Source of the DNA: an uncultured Acidimicrobiia bacterium
GTDB lineage: Bacteria > Actinomycetota > Acidimicrobiia > Spongiisociales > JAENVV01
Length of the DNA: 64,000 nt
NCBI GenBank assembly: GCA_965366365.1
Contig: CBDUEV010000006.1
Coordinates: 1,429-65,428 of the forward strand
Direction: 5' to 3'
Part shown: piece by piece, positions 4,427 to 54,532 of the stretch
Layout: each line of letters starts with the position of its first letter
How positions within the stretch are numbered: position 1 is the stretch's first letter
Position numbers and translations under genes: made by a program
Notes under the pieces: generated by a model
Database searches by the model: none
What the model was told of the DNA's origin: nothing
What the model saw: the letters and a program-made list of their open reading frames with translations, nothing else

Positions 4427-5388
<962 letters not shown>

Positions 5389-44003: not shown

Positions 44004-45017
44004 ATGCGGCTGTATCGAACCGGGGACTCCGGGGGGCCGGTCCGCGATATTCAGCGACGGCTTGCGGCGGTGGGTCACTCGAGCCGGCCCGATCCTCCTG
44101 GAGAGTTCGGGCAGGGAACCGAGTCGGCCGTGCTGGCGTTTCAGGAGGAACGCGGCCTGGCGCGGGACGGTATCGTCGGCCCCGATACGTGGCGAGCGCT
44201 GTACGAAGCGGGCTACGCCCTCGGTGACCGCCTCCTCTTCTATCGCTCCCCCATGCTGCGCGGCGACGACGTCGCCGACCTTCAACGGCGACTCAACGAA
44301 TTCGGATTCGACGCCGACAAGGTCGACGGGGTCTTCGGTCCGCTCACCCATCGGGCGGTTCTCGACTTCGAAGCCAACCGGAGCATGGCAGAAGACGGCG
44401 TGGTCGGCCCACGGGTGATCGAAGAGTTGAAGGCGCTGCAACGAACGCCCCCACAAGCCGGTCGAGAACGGGTACGCGAGAGGGAGTGGCTGCGCGGGCT
44501 CCCCCGCACGGTGGTGGGGACCAGGATCTACCTCGATCCAGCCGGGTCGGAAGACGCCCTCGGCGCCGCCCTCTGGGACCTGACGACGGAAATCTTCGTC
44601 GGTTTCCAGAATTTAGGCGGCGTTCCGGTCCTTTCTCACAGCGTGGACGTGTCCCCGCCTGCCACGGTGCGGGCTCGTCGCGCCAATCGCCTCGGGGCGG
44701 ACCTGACGCTCTCGTTTCGAGCTCCCGGGCCGGAGGGAACCGGCATCTACTTTTTTCAGAGTCCGCACAGTAGAAGCGAGGCGGGATTCCTCCTGGCGTC
44801 GGTGTTGGCCGACGCGCTCGGTGTATCGATCAGCGGTCGCACCACGCCGATGCTCAAGAACACCCGCGCCCCCGCCGTCCTGATCGCCATCGAACCGACA
44901 CCGAAGATCGCCGACGCCGTATTGGCCGGGGTGTGCGATTTCTTCCGAAGGGCGGCCGAGGAGATGAAGACCCCCGACCCGAAGAACGCCGCAGTCGCGG
45001 CCACGCTCGAACCCTAG
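44004..45017 (+). CDS. cwlM: N-acetylmuramoyl-L-alanine amidase family regulator with two peptidoglycan-binding domains (CwlM-like)
   Basis: Two PG_binding_1 repeats (DIQRRLAAVGH.., DLQRRLNEFGF..) plus a C-terminal amidase_3 domain; conserved position after trxB-trxA. Confidence 0.8.
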   Translation: MRLYRTGDSGGPVRDIQRRLAAVGHSSRPDPPGEFGQGTESAVLAFQEERGLARDGIVGPDTWRALYEAGYALGDRLLFYRSPMLRGDDVADLQRRLNEFGFDADKVDGVFGPLTHRAVLDFEANRSMAEDGVVGPRVIEELKALQRTPPQAGRERVREREWLRGLPRTVVGTRIYLDPAGSEDALGAALWDLTTEIFVGFQNLGGVPVLSHSVDVSPPATVRARRANRLGADLTLSFRAPGPEGTGIYFFQSPHSRSEAGFLLASVLADALGVSISGRTTPMLKNTRAPAVLIAIEPTPKIADAVLAGVCDFFRRAAEEMKTPDPKNAAVAATLEP

Positions 45018-45904: not shown

Positions 45905-46687
45905 CTACTCTCGCCCGTGGCGGCGTCGGAACTCTCGACCGAGCTCCCGGTATGCGATCGCTCCCCGACTCATCGGGTCGAAGGCCTCGATGGGTTCACC
46001 ATATGAGGGTGCCTCGCTGAGTCGAACTGACCTCGGAATCACCGTGCGATACGCCTGCTCCCCGAAAAAGGCTCGTACCTGGGCGGCGACATCTGCGGAG
46101 AGCTTGGTCCTAGCGTCATACATCGTCAGGACGGCGCCACCGATCTCGAGGTCCGGATTGAGGTTTCCCTGCACCAGTTCAACATTCCGAAGGAGTTGGC
46201 TGAGTCCCTCCAGTGCGTAGTACTCGCTCTGGATGGGAATCAAGACCTCGTCTGCAGCGGCAAAGGCATTGATCGTCAGGAGGCCCAGTGAGGGCGGGCA
46301 ATCGATGAGCACGAAGTCGTACTCTCCCATCACTCCCTTCAGGGCATTGCGGAGCCGTTGTTCCCGCGAGAAGACCGAGACCAGCTCGATCTCGGCGCCG
46401 GCGAGGTCGATGGTCGCCGGTACGACATAGAGGTTCCGAACGCTGGTCGGCTCGACGGCGTCCTCGATAGGCTGTTCCTGCAGCAACACGTCATAGATCG
46501 ACAATTCGATTGTGGAACGGTCCACCCCAAGGCCCGAAGTGGCGTTTCCCTGCGGGTCGAGATCCACGAGGAGGATCCGTTCACCCTGAAAGGCCAAAGC
46601 AGCGGCAAGGTTGATGGAGGTCGTTGATTTGCCGACGCCGCCCTTCTGGTTGGCGAGTGCGACGATACGAGTCTGGCGTTCGCTCAC
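45905..46687 (-). CDS. parA: chromosome partitioning ATPase ParA/Soj
   Basis: Deviant Walker A NQKGGVGKSTT. Start chosen at the GTG that makes a GTGA overlap with the rsmG stop; the track start 46711 would overlap rsmG by 28 nt. Confidence 0.85.
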   Translation of the reverse strand: MSERQTRIVALANQKGGVGKSTTSINLAAALAFQGERILLVDLDPQGNATSGLGVDRSTIELSIYDVLLQEQPIEDAVEPTSVRNLYVVPATIDLAGAEIELVSVFSREQRLRNALKGVMGEYDFVLIDCPPSLGLLTINAFAAADEVLIPIQSEYYALEGLSQLLRNVELVQGNLNPDLEIGGAVLTMYDARTKLSADVAAQVRAFFGEQAYRTVIPRSVRLSEAPSYGEPIEAFDPMSRGAIAYRELGREFRRRHGRE

Positions 46688-47316
46688 GATCGCGCCATGA
46701 TAAGCAACCACGCGCGAAGGTCAAGGACCTTTACCTCCTCGACCGTCCCGGTCAGGCCTGCCGCCTCAGTGGCCAAGAGGAGTTCGGCCGCATTGGTGGG
46801 GGCCTGTGTCCGGCTCAGACCAACCACGCTTCTCCCTCCGGGGTGCAGAAGCGGTGCAACGACAGAAGGTGCCTCGACGGGGGGGAGCACTGCCCTCATC
46901 ACCACCGCTTCATACTGATCCCGGTGGGAGTGCACATCGGCCTGCAAAGCGGAGACGTTGGCGAGTCCGAGGACCCGGATCGCCCGTCGGGCCAGGTCAT
47001 ATCGCCGGCCGGACCGGTCCAGGAGCACCACCTGTGCCTCGGGCCACACGATTCCCAGGACCAACCCAGGGAGCCCGACACCCGAGCCGATGTCCAGCAC
47101 CGTGGCCGGGGCGGTACCCCGCCACGGACGGGCAAACAACACGGAATCTGCCAGGTGGCGCTCCTCGAGCAAGTCAACCTCGCTGGGTCCGACGCCGCCT
47201 GCTTCCACCGCCTCGGTTGCCAGCCAATGCTGAAGCTTCTCCATGGAACTCCACTGCCGGTCGTCCAGCGTGAGTCCGGCGTCTGCCAGGGCGGCTTCGA
47301 TCGGTGCTCTTTCCAT
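46684..47316 (-). CDS. rsmG: 16S rRNA (guanine527-N7)-methyltransferase
   Basis: SAM motif VLDIGSGVGLPGLVL; conserved position upstream of parAB. Confidence 0.85.
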   Translation of the reverse strand: MERAPIEAALADAGLTLDDRQWSSMEKLQHWLATEAVEAGGVGPSEVDLLEERHLADSVLFARPWRGTAPATVLDIGSGVGLPGLVLGIVWPEAQVVLLDRSGRRYDLARRAIRVLGLANVSALQADVHSHRDQYEAVVMRAVLPPVEAPSVVAPLLHPGGRSVVGLSRTQAPTNAAELLLATEAAGLTGTVEEVKVLDLRAWLLIMARS

Positions 47317-47367
47317 CGGGCGATGATAGCCAGCCGGAGCCGAAATCCGGTGTCCGCCATGTGTTTC

Positions 47368-47381
47368 GTTTCACGTGAAAC
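47368..47381. promoter_or_regulatory. parS centromere site 1 (GTTTCACGTGAAAC, perfect palindrome)
   Basis: 14/14 match to the core of the parS consensus tGTTTCACGTGAAACa; lies in the rsmG-parA-parB promoter region. Confidence 0.8.
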
Positions 47382-47403
47382 CTCAACCGAGCGTCTAGCC
47401 AGC

Positions 47404-47417
47404 GTTTCACGTGAAAC
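47404..47417. promoter_or_regulatory. parS centromere site 2 (GTTTCACGTGAAAC)
   Basis: Identical second copy 36 bp from the first. Confidence 0.8.
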
Positions 47418-47424
47418 GCGAGAA

Positions 47425-47450
47425 GGGGGCCGATCGGCCCCCTTCTTCGG
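47425..47450 (-). terminator. candidate intrinsic terminator downstream of jag (yidC-jag operon)
   Basis: GGGGGCCGATCGGCCCCC hairpin with a perfect 7-bp stem, followed on the minus strand by a TTCTCGCGTTTC pyrimidine-rich tract. Confidence 0.5.
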
Positions 47451-47468
47451 TCTCCTGAGCGATGGCGA

Positions 47469-48341
47469 TCACTCCGGGCTGATAACCACGCTGCGGCGCG
47501 GCTCTTCGCCCTCCGAATACGAGCGCACCCCGTCGAGCGCCTGTACGGCGTCGTGGATCACCTTGCGGTCGGCCGGATTCATGGGCTCCAGCATCACTTC
47601 CGCCCCATCCTCCCGCACTTGTTCGGCCAGGCGACCGGCATAGATGGCGAGAGCCTCCCGACGTCGCTCGCCGTAGCCGGCAATATCCAGCCGGAGTCGC
47701 ACGTTTTCGTGCGTCTGCCGCTGGACAACCGTCCGCGCCAGCTCGTGGACCGATTGCATGATCGAGCCTTTTGGCCCCACAAGCGCCTCCGTTTGCTCGC
47801 CGCTCACGTTGGCGTGGATGATATCGTCCTCGTCGGCGGAGGCGGTCACCGTGCCTTCCAAGCCAAACGCATCGAGCAATCCAACGAGAAACTCCCTGAC
47901 GACCTCTGCTTGTTCTTCGCGCGTCACGGATGGCTCCTCGTTCTTGGTCGACGCCCCGGCGTTCGATGAACCCGAGTCCTTGTTCGCCTGTGCAGGCCGG
48001 TTGCTTCTTTGGTCACGGCCCTGCGAGCTGCCCTGTTGTTTCCGTTCGGGCCTACCTTGTTTGCCGCCGCTGCGGTCTCTTCCTTGGTTTTGCCCTCTTT
48101 CTGAGGTTTTGGGGCTTTCGCGGTTGGAGTCGTCGCGACCTTTGCCTCGGTTTCGGCGCCGGCGCTTGGGCTTTGCCTTCACCTGAACCACGGCTTGCTT
48201 GGCGCCCATCCCGAGGAAGCCCCGTTCGGGCTCCTGGATCACTTTGACGTCAGCCTGCTTCTCCGACTCCAGCCCGAGTTCTTCGATTGCTGCCTGGACA
48301 GCGATCTCGACCGTCTTTCCTCGTACTTCTACCCACTCCAC
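47469..48341 (-). CDS. jag: Jag/KhpB RNA-binding protein (Jag_N, KH, R3H domains)
   Basis: Jag N-terminus MEWVEVRGKTVEIAVQAAIEELG, a Lys/Arg/Gly-rich linker, C-terminal KH and R3H (VMLEPMNPADRKVIHDAV). Confidence 0.8.
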   Translation of the reverse strand: MEWVEVRGKTVEIAVQAAIEELGLESEKQADVKVIQEPERGFLGMGAKQAVVQVKAKPKRRRRNRGKGRDDSNRESPKTSERGQNQGRDRSGGKQGRPERKQQGSSQGRDQRSNRPAQANKDSGSSNAGASTKNEEPSVTREEQAEVVREFLVGLLDAFGLEGTVTASADEDDIIHANVSGEQTEALVGPKGSIMQSVHELARTVVQRQTHENVRLRLDIAGYGERRREALAIYAGRLAEQVREDGAEVMLEPMNPADRKVIHDAVQALDGVRSYSEGEEPRRSVVISPE

Positions 48342-48346
48342 GATAT

Positions 48347-49180
48347 CTAATTCCTCCTCCGCCGCTGGCGCTTTTTGGCGGACCCTTGCACCTTCTTGGG
48401 TGTCTGGGGCCCTTCCTTCGGCTCGGCCTTTGCCTCCTCGGTTCCCGTTTCGGGGGGAGTGGGCCGGCCGTCGATCTTGTAGATGACGGCCTGTTGGCCG
48501 AGCCGGAAAACGTTTGATGTGGCCCAGTACACGATCAACCCTGCCTGGAAGTTCCAGGCAAAGATACCAAACATGAAGGGCAGGAACTTGGTGATGTTCT
48601 GGGTCATCTGGACCTGCGGGTTCGAGGCGTCTTGAGGGGTGGCCGCCTGGGTATAGGCTTGCTGGAGGAATTGGCCACCCACCATGACCAGGATGGCGAG
48701 AATATACGGCAGCGTCGTGAGCAGGCCCGCACCAAAGGCGGCGCTTGGTGTCTGGGTGAGATCCATACCGAGCCAGACGGTGTTACCGGCTTCGATCGTG
48801 TCGTGAAGGGCAGAACTGGCCGGTATGAACTCGAGAGGCGTCCTGAGGAGCCGGAACAGGGCGAACCAAATCGGCATCTGAACCAGCATCGGCCCCAGGC
48901 ACCCGGTCGGGCTCGCTCCGTGCTCTCGTTGGAGCTTGATCATCTCCTCCTGGAGTTTCTTCGGGTCTTCCTTGTGCTCCGCCTGGACCTTTCGGACTTC
49001 AGGCTGCATCTGACTGAACGCCCGGGTGGCGCGGGTCTGCTTCAGCGTCAACGGAAAGAGGACGAGGTTGATCAGAAGAGTGAGGCCGATAATGGACCAC
49101 CCGAAGTCCGGAACAAGGTCGTAGAGAAAGGCGAGGATCAAGCCGAGGGGATCGGCGATGGTCTTGAGAATGCCGTCCAT
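48347..49180 (-). CDS. yidC: membrane protein insertase YidC
   Basis: Short actinobacterial-type YidC with a 5-TM core and basic C-terminal tail. Confidence 0.85.
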   Translation of the reverse strand: MDGILKTIADPLGLILAFLYDLVPDFGWSIIGLTLLINLVLFPLTLKQTRATRAFSQMQPEVRKVQAEHKEDPKKLQEEMIKLQREHGASPTGCLGPMLVQMPIWFALFRLLRTPLEFIPASSALHDTIEAGNTVWLGMDLTQTPSAAFGAGLLTTLPYILAILVMVGGQFLQQAYTQAATPQDASNPQVQMTQNITKFLPFMFGIFAWNFQAGLIVYWATSNVFRLGQQAVIYKIDGRPTPPETGTEEAKAEPKEGPQTPKKVQGSAKKRQRRRRN

Positions 49181-50383: not shown

Positions 50384-50416
50384 CTTTCCACATGATGTGG
50401 ATATACCTGTGGAAAA
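50384..50416. promoter_or_regulatory. cluster of three DnaA boxes upstream of dnaA
   Basis: CTTTCCACA (50384-92), TGTGGATAT (50396-04) and TGTGGAAAA (50408-16) are 8/9-type matches to TT(A/T)TCCACA in alternating orientation; an SD sequence AGGAGG follows before the GTG start. Confidence 0.65.
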
Positions 50417-50441: not shown

Positions 50442-51848
50442 GTGACGCAAGTGACTGCAACCGAGTGGGAACTCTTCCGTGACACGGTTCGATCCAAAGT
50501 CACGGACGTCACCTGGCAGAACTGGCTGGCAGCCCTCCAAACAGAGGGCACCGAGGACAACGTACTCCACCTCACGGCCCCGAGCGACTTCCATCTTCGG
50601 TGGGTGTTCGACAAACACCTCGAGGTGCTCGAAGCGTCGGCTCGCTCGGTGTACGGCTCCGACATCGTCATCGATCTGTCCATGAACCCGGACCACGAGA
50701 TCCCCGCAACTCCGGCGGCCGACCTGGAACCAACCGCTGGGCAACCGGCCGGCCGGCAACCGGTTGGCGAACCTCCGCGGCTACATCAGCTGCCTCCCCG
50801 CGAGTTGGATGATCAGCCGGAAGCCAGCCGGCTCCTGGCCCGGTACACCTTCGACCATTTCGTCGTTGGTTCCTCCAACCAGTTTGCCCACGCGGCCGCA
50901 ATGGCCGTAGCGGAACAGCCGGGCCGCCACTACAACCCCCTGTTCATCTACGGCGCCGCCGGATTGGGGAAGACCCACCTGCTGCACGCTGTCGGGCATC
51001 ACTCCATCGAGCTGAACCCCCGCTGTGTCGTGCGCTACGTCAGCTCGGAGAATTTCTTCAATCAATTCATCAACGGCATCCGCCGGAAGAAGATGGACGA
51101 GTTCAAGACCCGCTATCGAACCACCGATGTGCTCCTGCTCGACGATGTTCAGTTTTTCGAAGGGAAGGAGCAGATCCTCGAGGAGTTCTTCCATACCTTC
51201 AACAGCCTGTACGAGTCGGGCAAACAGATGGTGATCAGTTCGGACCGTCACCCCCGCAACCTCGCCTCACTCGAGGACCGCCTCAGGAGCCGCTTCGAAT
51301 GGGGTCTTCTCACTGACATCCAACCGCCGGATGTGGAGACTCGCCTGGCCATCCTCAGGAAGAACACCGACAGGGTCCGACAGCAGTTTCCCGAGGATGT
51401 GCTCCGGTTCATCGCCGAGAACGTCCACGACAACATCCGCGAACTCGAGGGCGCCCTCACCCGCGTGACGGCCTATTCGACCCTCACCGCCAGCGCCATC
51501 GACCTCGCCATGGCCCAGCAAGTGCTGGCTGACCTGGTACCCAATTCTGCGTCGCGTCCCCTCACCCCGGAAGACATCCTGAGAACGACGGCCGCCAAAT
51601 TCGGCTTTGCGGTAGAGGACGTCACCGGGCCGAGCCGTCGAGCACCCCTGGTCCTGGCCCGGCAGATCGCCATGTACCAATGCCGGGAACTGACCAGCTT
51701 GTCTCTGCCTCGAATCGGAGCCCTGTTCGGAGGGCGTGATCACACGACCGTCATGTACGCCATCGGCAAGGTCAAGTCACGCATGGAGACCGATCCGGAC
51801 GTCTTCGAGAGTGTGAACAAGTTGTCCCAGGAGCTGAGGAGAACATGA
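50442..51848 (+). CDS. dnaA: chromosomal replication initiator protein DnaA
   Basis: AAA+ Walker A GAAGLGKTHLL, DnaA signature and C-terminal DNA-binding helix; GTG start. Confidence 0.92.
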   Translation: MTQVTATEWELFRDTVRSKVTDVTWQNWLAALQTEGTEDNVLHLTAPSDFHLRWVFDKHLEVLEASARSVYGSDIVIDLSMNPDHEIPATPAADLEPTAGQPAGRQPVGEPPRLHQLPPRELDDQPEASRLLARYTFDHFVVGSSNQFAHAAAMAVAEQPGRHYNPLFIYGAAGLGKTHLLHAVGHHSIELNPRCVVRYVSSENFFNQFINGIRRKKMDEFKTRYRTTDVLLLDDVQFFEGKEQILEEFFHTFNSLYESGKQMVISSDRHPRNLASLEDRLRSRFEWGLLTDIQPPDVETRLAILRKNTDRVRQQFPEDVLRFIAENVHDNIRELEGALTRVTAYSTLTASAIDLAMAQQVLADLVPNSASRPLTPEDILRTTAAKFGFAVEDVTGPSRRAPLVLARQIAMYQCRELTSLSLPRIGALFGGRDHTTVMYAIGKVKSRMETDPDVFESVNKLSQELRRT

Positions 51849-52038
51849 CGCTTATCCCCATCCATCCCCATCCAGATTCTGGGTGGCGCGAAGAACTGGG
51901 CGATTCTCCCCACCCCCTGTTGAGAGAGAAAGTACGCTGACCAGGCACTTCGTTGAGTTTTCCACTTTCCACAACCCCTAATACTGTTACTACCGGTTTA
52001 AACAGAAGAACAGAAAGAGAAGAAGGGCTGGCCAACCT
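51849..52038. other. candidate oriC (dnaA-dnaN intergenic: DnaA boxes plus AT-rich unwinding region)
   Basis: TTATCCCCA (51852-60), TTTTCCACT (51958-66), TTTCCACAA (51966-74), followed by a 46-bp AT-rich tract, taatactgttactaccggtttaaacagaagaacagaaagagaagaa, in a ~70% GC genome. Confidence 0.6.
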
Positions 52039-53127: not shown

Positions 53128-54221
53128 GGCTCGGCTGGATCGAGCTGACCGACTTCCGCTCCTATCGCCAACTGCGATTCGACCCCGATCCCTCGGTCAA
53201 CGTCCTGGTGGGGAACAACGCAACGGGGAAGACGAACCTGCTGGAAGCGATCGCCTATCTCGGCTCGCTCCGGAGTTTCCGAGGAGCTCCGGAGGCGGCT
53301 CTCGTGCAGCTCGAGGCTCAGGCGGCGGTCATTCGGGGCGAGGTCATCCATGGAGATTCGTCTTCGCTGGTGGAGATCGAGCTGCCGGCAGCAGGACGGC
53401 GCCGGGTGCAGGTGAATCGGCAGCGTCTGGCACGCTCGTCGGACTTGTTGGGACATCTCCGCATCGTGGTGTTCCTTCCCGACGATCTGGATGTCATCAA
53501 GAGGTCGCCCTCCTACCGGCGGGACTTCATCGACCAGGTGGCCGTACAACTCTGGCCCGGAGCGCATCTCGACCAGGCGGAATACGACCGGGCCCTGCGC
53601 CAACGAAATACCCTCCTTCGGCAGATGGGCCGCTCCGCCGACGCTCCGACCCTTGCTGTCTGGAACGAGCGTCTCTCACAGGCGGGGGCGAAGGTCATGG
53701 CACGGAGAGCCCAGGCTTTGGACCGCCTCTCGGAACGGGTCGACGACGCCTACCGTGCGCTCGCCGGCGAAGGCACCCCTGTGTCGTTCTCCTACGACTC
53801 GGACTGGGGTGGGAGCCTGGACGTAGGGATCTCGGCCTCAGAGCATCAGGCGAGGCTGTGGGCTGCTCTGGAGACCGCTGAGCCGACCGACAAGGACCGA
53901 CGCACGACGACGGTCGGCCTGCACCGCGACGAGCCCCAGTTCTTCTTGGCGGGGAGGCCTTCGCGAACGCATGCCTCCCAAGGCGAACAGAGAACGCTGG
54001 TGCTCTCGCTTCGGCTGGCCACCCATCACGCCGTTGCGGCTCTGACAGGCTTGCCACCGCTCTTGGTTCTCGATGATGTCTTCTCCGAACTCGACATGGC
54101 TCGAGCCCAGGCCTTGGCGGACGCGCTTCCCATCGCCCAGACGTTCATCACCACTGCCCGCGACGAGGAGGTGCCGGTGGCCGGCCGCCGGTGGTCCGTC
54201 GAGTTGGGGAGGGTGGCGTGA
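53124..54221 (+). CDS. recF: DNA replication and repair protein RecF
   Basis: Walker A GNNATGKTNLLEAI, SMC-like signature, Walker B LLVLDDVFSELD; GTG start overlapping the dnaN stop. Confidence 0.9.
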   Translation: MRLGWIELTDFRSYRQLRFDPDPSVNVLVGNNATGKTNLLEAIAYLGSLRSFRGAPEAALVQLEAQAAVIRGEVIHGDSSSLVEIELPAAGRRRVQVNRQRLARSSDLLGHLRIVVFLPDDLDVIKRSPSYRRDFIDQVAVQLWPGAHLDQAEYDRALRQRNTLLRQMGRSADAPTLAVWNERLSQAGAKVMARRAQALDRLSERVDDAYRALAGEGTPVSFSYDSDWGGSLDVGISASEHQARLWAALETAEPTDKDRRTTTVGLHRDEPQFFLAGRPSRTHASQGEQRTLVLSLRLATHHAVAALTGLPPLLVLDDVFSELDMARAQALADALPIAQTFITTARDEEVPVAGRRWSVELGRVA

Positions 54222-54532
54222 GCCGTCCCGGCGACGACCGGCCCGGCTTGACGAGCTTGTCCGGTCCGCTTCGCGAGGCGCTTCGACGTCTGGGGCTGGC
54301 CGACATGGATGTCCTGTTGCGCATCATGGCCGACTGGGACGAACTGGCAGGACCCCCGTGGGCCGGGGCCTCGTCCCCTGTCTTTCTGCGGGCGGGGGAG
54401 TTGACCGTCGAGGCCGCCGCCCTGGGAGCAGTCAGAGTGTTGAGATACGCCACCGGAGACCTCATGGAGAAGCTCGACGAGTTCTGTGGTCCAGGGGTGG
54501 TCCAGACGATTCGGGTGGTGGGCCCCGGCTAG
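54218..54532 (+). CDS. DUF721 domain protein (DciA-like, recF-gyrB intergenic gene)
   Basis: Conserved position; GTGA overlap with recF; ~100 aa. Confidence 0.65.
   Translation: MSRPGDDRPGLTSLSGPLREALRRLGLADMDVLLRIMADWDELAGPPWAGASSPVFLRAGELTVEAAALGAVRVLRYATGDLMEKLDEFCGPGVVQTIRVVGPG

Follow-up and report, generated by a model that had tools for sequence, protein, structure and literature searches.

Two identical short palindromes separate jag from rsmG-parA-parB in the genome of an uncultured Acidimicrobiia bacterium. They raise the question of whether the pair is the chromosomal centromere onto which ParB loads, and whether ParB bound there would also govern transcription of the genes that encode it and its partner. 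We addressed this question in the 64-kb stretch of DNA that contains the pair (64,000 nucleotides; hereafter, the window) and in related par loci.

Sequence and rarity of the palindromes

The initial annotation had placed two perfect 14-bp palindromes, GTTTCACGTGAAAC, at 47368-47381 and 47404-47417 and had matched each of them to the core of the ParB-binding consensus. An exact search of the 64-kb window confirms two copies, at exactly these positions, and the core that they match is the canonical parS core. The plus strand across both palindromes reads ...tgtgtttcGTTTCACGTGAAACctcaaccgagcgtctagccagcGTTTCACGTGAAACgcgagaaGGGGGCCGATCGGCCCCCttcttc...; with their flanking bases, the copies are cGTTTCACGTGAAACc (47367-47382) and cGTTTCACGTGAAACg (47403-47418), separated by a spacer of 22 bp (47382-47403) that gives a start-to-start distance of 36 bp. 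Compared with the 16-mer consensus TGTTTCACGTGAAACA, each copy carries two mismatches, confined to the two outermost bases, and against the palindromic parS consensus tGTTTCACGTGAAACa each scores 14/14 in the core and 14/16 overall, the agreement expected of a parS site. The unmatched ends of the 16-mer (T...A in the consensus) fall at positions that are also variable among the sites of relatives.

From base composition (~65% GC), ~7e-5 copies of the 14-mer are expected per 64 kb; the two exact matches observed in the window compare with 0.00 expected, and not one of 100 dinucleotide shuffles contained a match. When up to three mismatches were allowed, a single extra match appeared in the window, at 44138, no more than chance would give (1.63 expected; at least three matches in 23 of the 100 shuffles). 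No further credible parS copy was found in the 64-kb window, nor in the sampled flanks of the three closest genome matches (L007-L009). This lack of any further credible copy, even at three mismatches, argues against a dispersed repeat, or an operator centered on CACGTG that serves another regulator, in place of a ParB site; the motif is moreover identical to experimentally defined parS, and we consider the probability of such a reading close to negligible. The recognition site of Noc (NBS, tATTTCCCGGGAAATa) has A1 and C6 in each half-site where parS has G1 and A6 (bioRxiv 10.1101/724823). Both window copies carry G1 and A6, and neither they nor the residues of the window ParB fit an NBS; the difference at both discriminating positions again speaks against an operator of another kind.

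An extra GTTTC half-arm adjoins copy 2 (47363-47381, GTTTCGTTTCACGTGAAAC). It is not kept in L007-L009 and is probably incidental.

Gene context and proximity to the origin

The genes and sequence elements of the locus are as follows.

50442-51848, plus strand: dnaA, a marker of the origin region (Pfam and contig gene calls)
49500-49180, minus strand: yidD (Pfam)
49180-48347, minus strand: yidC (Pfam)
48341-47469, minus strand: jag, with Jag_N and R3H domains, the gene upstream of the sites
47422-47445, minus strand: GC-rich stem-loop, a perfect 24-nt palindrome with a 10-bp stem and a 4-nt loop
47404-47417, no strand assigned: predicted parS copy 1 (jag side), GTTTCACGTGAAAC, an invariant block in the alignment of relatives
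47368-47381, no strand assigned: predicted parS copy 2 (rsmG side), GTTTCACGTGAAAC, an invariant block in the alignment of relatives
47323-47328, minus strand: candidate -10 element TATCAT, 6 nt before the rsmG ATG, read from the sequence and not called by the consensus scan
47316-46684, minus strand: rsmG/gidB (16S rRNA methyltransferase G), first in the compact rsmG-parA-parB group
45905-46687, minus strand: parA, 260 aa in the gene calls of matching contigs, with the Walker A motif KGGVGKST
45894-45028, minus strand: parB, 288 aa, with ParB_N, HTH_ParB and ParB_C domains

Both copies lie inside the 152-bp gap (47317-47468) between the jag stop (47469) and the rsmG ATG (47316). On the transcribed (minus) strand, the jag stop is followed by 23 nt, the 24-nt palindrome, 4 nt and copy 1, and then by the 22-nt spacer, copy 2, 39 nt, TATCAT and a final 6 nt before the rsmG ATG, which places copy 2 51 nt from that start codon. 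Pfam and gene calls on matching metagenome contigs give the minus-strand order yidD-yidC-jag-[sites]-rsmG-parA-parB, the Pfam scores for ParB, ParA, RsmG, Jag, YidC and DnaA being strong. The parA GTG start (46687, as called on the matching contigs) overlaps the rsmG stop by 4 nt, and the gap from parA to parB is 10 nt. The sites had been described as lying between a hairpin after jag (GGGGGCCGATCGGCCCCC) and the start of rsmG, upstream of rsmG-parA-parB, in an origin-proximal position at ~3 kb from dnaA. All parts of this placement were borne out by the sequence, Pfam and the contig gene calls: the hairpin is present at 47425-47442, inside the 24-nt palindrome, and the start of dnaA is 3,025 bp from copy 1 (47417).

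The sites fall within an rpmH-rnpA-yidD-yidC-jag / dnaA-dnaN-recF-gyrB block, a gene context that is origin-proximal, with dnaN and recF on the plus strand together with dnaA. Metagenome contigs with an identical ParB have the same order and add rpmH, rnpA, a DciA-like gene and gyrB. Beyond parB lie trxA/trxB, a sigma factor and a PG-binding protein, which is the usual actinobacterial origin-region layout. A small DciA-family gene (PF05258) is located between recF and gyrB (~54218-54532, plus strand; 1363-1677 in L001), as is usual for Actinomycetota. Rfam searches of the 64 kb gave no gathering-score match anywhere (no tRNA, rRNA or riboswitch), which is somewhat unusual for such a length around an origin.

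We base origin proximity on gene context because DnaA boxes (TTGTCCACA, at most one mismatch) are not significantly enriched in the 64-kb window (11 matches against 7.9 expected) and form only small clusters near dnaA. One DnaA-box-like cluster, TTTCCACATGATGTGGATATACCTGTGGAAAA, lies directly upstream of dnaA (50385-50416), and two further elements, TTATCCCCATCCATCCCCATCC (51852-51873) and TTTTCCACTTTCCACAA (51958-51974), lie in the 190-bp dnaA-dnaN gap beside an AT-rich stretch. As candidate oriC or dnaA autoregulation elements, these clusters flanking dnaA are only suggestive.

The encoded ParB and ParA

The window ParB contains ParB_N, HTH_ParB and ParB_C domains (Pfam) and carries an N-terminal GLGRGLEAL, the CTP-binding motif GERRLRA, ENVQRQDL and GKSRSAVTNT...SAGAAR. 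Its closest solved structures include Thermus Spo0J (1vz0, E = 9e-51), B. subtilis Spo0J (6sdk, E = 9e-47) and the Caulobacter ParB-parS complex (6t1f), with E-values for the three from 1e-46 to 1e-50. Specificity for parS or for the Noc site is set by Caulobacter positions 173, 179, 184 and 201, of which R173 is invariant and G201 preferred in parS binders, with Q173 and R201 as their counterparts in Noc (Jalal et al., bioRxiv 10.1101/724823). Counted from GKSR in GKSRSAVTNTLRLLT...SAGAAR, a register backed by HMMER alignments to other ParBs that run through this stretch without gaps, the window protein has R173, N178, T179, T184, G201 and R204 (Caulobacter numbering), which reads as a parS-type and not a Noc-type set. 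The protein thus combines the parS-specific helix-turn-helix with the CTP-switch motifs expected of a cognate ParB, and the presence of its gene ~1.5 kb from the sites is a further argument against a generic repeat. ParA, with AAA_31/CbiA/ParA Pfam matches and the deviant Walker A motif KGGVGKST, has the features expected of the partner ATPase.

At residues ~143-147 (THQEV), the window ParB has a His at the equivalent of a conserved DNA-contacting Gln, Q162 of Caulobacter. The T-H-x-E pattern is present in 11/11 related ParBs captured by a pattern search (among them those of L007, L009, L089 and L091), and the idea of an oddity specific to this genome was dropped, the residue being common to relatives in this small sample.

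Conservation of the sites in Acidimicrobiia

The closest genome match is an uncultured Acidimicrobiia MAG (L007) whose ParB is 91% identical, followed by two Acidimicrobiaceae MAGs (L008, ParB 59%; L009, 55%) and then by other Actinomycetota at 41-51%. With jag and rsmG placed by tblastn, the gap between them contains two perfect cores in each of L007, L008 and L009, with starts 37, 41 and 34 bp apart, respectively. When the four gaps were aligned, the two 14-mers were the sole invariant blocks; the spacer, the flanks and the length of the gap have all diverged, the rest of the gap is beyond alignment, and RsmG itself is only 41-66% identical among these relatives. Conservation at the same locus thus spans ParB identities of 55-91%, as expected of sites under selection.

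Metagenome contigs extend this picture. Two of them carry a pair at the same offset from parB, with the copies 49 bp apart in L089, where the second copy is GTTCCACGTGAAAC, and 41 bp apart in L090, which may be the same lineage as L008. A third (L091) has one perfect site at that offset, and a more distant relative (L092) has three sites 57-60 bp apart and nearer parB. Copy number in the lineage is therefore usually two and not fixed, and the location upstream of rsmG is kept; the copy-to-copy spacing (34-49 bp) and the distance to rsmG vary. As read from these sequences, this is how separate binding sites for a protein would be expected to look when their sequence is strongly constrained. The start-to-start distances of 34, 36, 37, 41 and 49 bp (3.2-4.7 turns) share no helical phase, and for this reason the idea that the two sites cooperate in a face-specific manner was dropped.

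Taken together, the match to the consensus, the presence of cognate genes with their motifs, the location near the origin, the uniqueness of the pair in 64 kb and its purifying conservation make it very probable, in our view, that both palindromes are chromosomal parS, at which the ParB of a standard ParABS system nucleates and loads. The parS identity proposed in the initial annotation is accordingly retained on the canonical core, the adjacent ParB and ParA, and the conserved blocks in relatives.

Comparison with other Actinomycetota

To place the pair among its counterparts, parS cores with at most one mismatch were counted in 80 Actinomycetota par loci (L007-L086; 953 kb), which contain 237 of them. 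This strong association of the motif with par loci in 80 other genomes also counts against a generic repeat. In 62/78 loci, mostly from Actinomycetes, a site falls between -250 and +60 relative to the parA start, and numerous others lie downstream of parB. Most other Actinomycetota thus have a site at the parA start and many around it, whereas in Acidimicrobiia loci the sites lie ~610-745 bp upstream of parA, before rsmG, and are absent elsewhere in the sampled flanks.

Tight pairs (30-46 bp start to start) account for 17/165 inter-site gaps in the 80 loci. They are found in many genera, Streptomyces, Pseudonocardia and Haloechinothrix among them, and gaps of 14-29 bp are nearly absent (2), a distribution suggesting that two ParB dimers require some minimum spacing or that a double loading point is advantageous. 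Because tight pairs are frequent in Actinomycetota generally, the tandem arrangement is not peculiar to the window genome. Pseudonocardia, Streptomyces, Frankia and others resemble the window in their identical core motif and frequent close pairs; Streptomyces loci differ from it in having 5 sites in ~12 kb, against two sites only in 64 kb.

The hairpin after jag and a reading at the RNA level

The GC-rich stem-loop that precedes copy 1 on the minus strand folds stably (-27.7 kcal/mol for a 49-nt segment, z = -5.6), and its sequence makes it a probable terminator or attenuator of jag, with a weak U-tract running into copy 1. The tail that follows it, UUCUCGCGUUUCACG, is weakly U-rich, and the corresponding tail of L007, CUCUUUUGUUU, is better; a terminator scan of 46600-48400 did not call the stem-loop, which lacks a T-run. 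Equivalent hairpins of different sequence are present in L007 and L009 and absent in L008.

In the minimum-free-energy fold of the minus-strand transcript, copy 1 and copy 2 pair with each other in a long stem just past this hairpin (-82.1 kcal/mol for 181 nt, z = -4.4). The pair could then be read as an additional hairpin with a role in terminating or attenuating jag transcription, a reading that we judge very unlikely. An RNA hairpin was rejected as the primary function of the pair because two copies of any palindrome are automatically complementary, and because the sequence itself, not merely its pairing, is invariant: an RNA stem would permit compensatory changes, yet all 14 positions are unchanged in both copies at ParB identities down to 55%. 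The same 14-mer is also kept throughout Actinomycetota in many other contexts, coding regions included, a T-run is absent after the pair, and the whole 64-kb window is without Rfam matches at the gathering threshold.

Promoters and possible autoregulation

A scan of 46600-48400 for sigma-70 consensus promoters called none in the jag-rsmG gap and none overlapping the sites. TATCAT is the sole candidate -10 in the gap; it lies downstream of copy 2 and overlaps neither site, and L007 has TAGGAT at the same distance from the rsmG ATG (~4566-4582). Its geometry would fit a leaderless actinobacterial rsmG transcript, a possible reading that we infer from the sequence because the consensus scan called no promoter in the gap. 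If rsmG were transcribed in this way, the sites would lie at about -52 to -101, outside the core promoter.

A promoter-like sequence, TTGACC-16 nt-TATCAT (10/12 matches), is also present at 46697-46724 on the minus strand, inside the 3' end of rsmG. It is the lone match in 1.8 kb, against 0.1 expected, with 9 nt between the end of its -10 and the parA GTG. It resembles internal promoters mapped in the 3' end of mycobacterial gidB (PMC2346475), and would, if active, permit expression of parAB independently of the parS-containing gap.

We considered whether the pair is a centromere and, in addition, a ParB-dependent operator or roadblock on rsmG-parA-parB, with ParB bound at the sites, or sliding from them, hindering RNA polymerase that starts in the gap or reads through from jag. 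Most of the short interval immediately preceding the tightly packed rsmG-parA-parB genes is taken up by the sites. Only ~2-30 nt lie between the end of the second site and the likely rsmG start in L008, L009 and L089, so that a promoter located in their gap could not avoid overlapping the sites. The same proposal exists for M. bovis BCG, in which a parS in the gidB regulatory region overlaps the -10 of a gidB promoter, and Casart et al. (2008) explicitly suggested that ParB binding could regulate gidB-parA (PMC2346475). The best functional precedent is the intergenic pair parS3 and parS4 of P. aeruginosa, directly upstream of genes, where ParB represses the adjacent genes (PMC7022226); the genes regulated there are not the par operon, and the effect was demonstrated in that organism only.

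Several observations weigh against such regulation in the window. The gap is without a promoter call in the consensus scan, its sole candidate -10 is downstream of the sites, neither the spacing of the copies nor their distance to rsmG is conserved, and parA is preceded by its own promoter-like site. In other bacteria, transcriptional effects of chromosomal ParB are usually minor: upon loss of ParB, parS-adjacent expression was unchanged in B. subtilis, and minor effects were seen in V. cholerae and S. pneumoniae (PMC7022226). Autoregulation by ParB at the window sites is plausible and was proposed earlier for mycobacteria; as an account of this pair, an operator function in addition to that of the centromere is possible but, in our view, rather unlikely. 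It is unlikely that the centromere has been reduced to one or two adjacent parS in the jag-rsmG gap that double as a ParB-dependent switch for the levels of ParA, ParB and RsmG. If true, this would amount to a minimal, self-regulating centromere in an Acidimicrobiia lineage, set between the probable jag terminator and the rsmG start.

Comparison with characterized parS systems

In its layout the window locus is much like that of mycobacteria, where a site also lies upstream of gidB. M. tuberculosis and M. bovis BCG, like M. smegmatis, belong to the same phylum and have the identical 14-bp core GTTTCACGTGAAAC, which has been studied experimentally as mycobacterial parS (PMC2346475) and is listed as the M. 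smegmatis parS in a review (PMC7022226, Table). They share with the window the order jag-gidB(rsmG)-parA-parB near dnaA, a site in the jag-gidB region and the overlap of gidB with parA, the gidB stop overlapping the parA start in M. smegmatis (PMC2346475). In mycobacteria, both the jag-gidB gap and the 3' end of gidB have been shown to contain promoters (PMC2346475), and mycobacterial genomes have few sites, with two putative ones in one account (PMC2346475) and three in M. smegmatis (PMC7022226). The arrangements differ in that the two mycobacterial sites reported by Casart et al. lie upstream of gidB and within parA coding sequence, respectively, at a distance of ~0.8 kb, whereas the window pair is 36 bp apart in a single 152-bp gap; and the M. 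bovis BCG site overlaps a mapped -10, whereas the window sites are without evident promoter overlap. The interpretation in the initial annotation, including autoregulation, restates an existing model from a sister lineage, since Casart et al. had proposed it for mycobacteria.

Spo0J/parS of B. subtilis resembles the window system in its consensus (TGTTNCACGTGAAACA), its origin-proximal position and a ParB of the same family. It differs in having 8-10 sites, many of them imperfect, over a large origin-proximal domain, as described by Lin and Grossman (1998) in the account given in PMC2346475, whereas the window has two perfect and adjacent sites. In Caulobacter crescentus, parS 3 and 4, the two strongest sites, lie in one 260-bp segment near parAB, and spreading of ParB extends ~2 kb around any one site (Tran et al. 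2018, PMC5815017). Caulobacter differs from the window in its seven sites of graded affinity, its phylum and the position of the sites relative to genes.

Proposed mechanism and significance

ParB binding, sliding, segregation and any effect on rsmG-parAB transcription would follow the established behavior of the family, and the window proteins, judged by their sequences, possess the motifs needed for each proposed step. The analogy is to studied ParBs (Jalal et al. 2020, PMC7053999; PMC8367383). A ParB dimer would use its helix-turn-helix to recognize each 14-bp core; CTP binding, stimulated by parS, would then close the N-terminal gate, and the resulting clamp would slide onto flanking DNA and free the site for reloading, so that two adjacent sites would act as a double loading point. 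Such a loading point would build a kilobase-scale ParB complex over jag-rsmG-parAB, next to the origin. Nucleoid-bound ParA-ATP would move this complex via the N-terminal GLGRGL peptide of ParB, and the complex would probably also load SMC.

The finding is an ordinary instance of a well-known element in a new uncultured organism, and its significance beyond annotation is small: in an uncultured Acidimicrobiia genome, the pair very probably marks the centromere near the origin. With it, ParABS and its exact recognition sequence appear to extend unchanged into this poorly studied class, and the placement upstream of rsmG, usually as a tight pair, is a small comparative point with respect to most other Actinomycetota. 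The arrangement may be useful for predicting where centromeres and origins lie in MAGs, and for selecting a compact fragment with which to assay ParB in a heterologous host.
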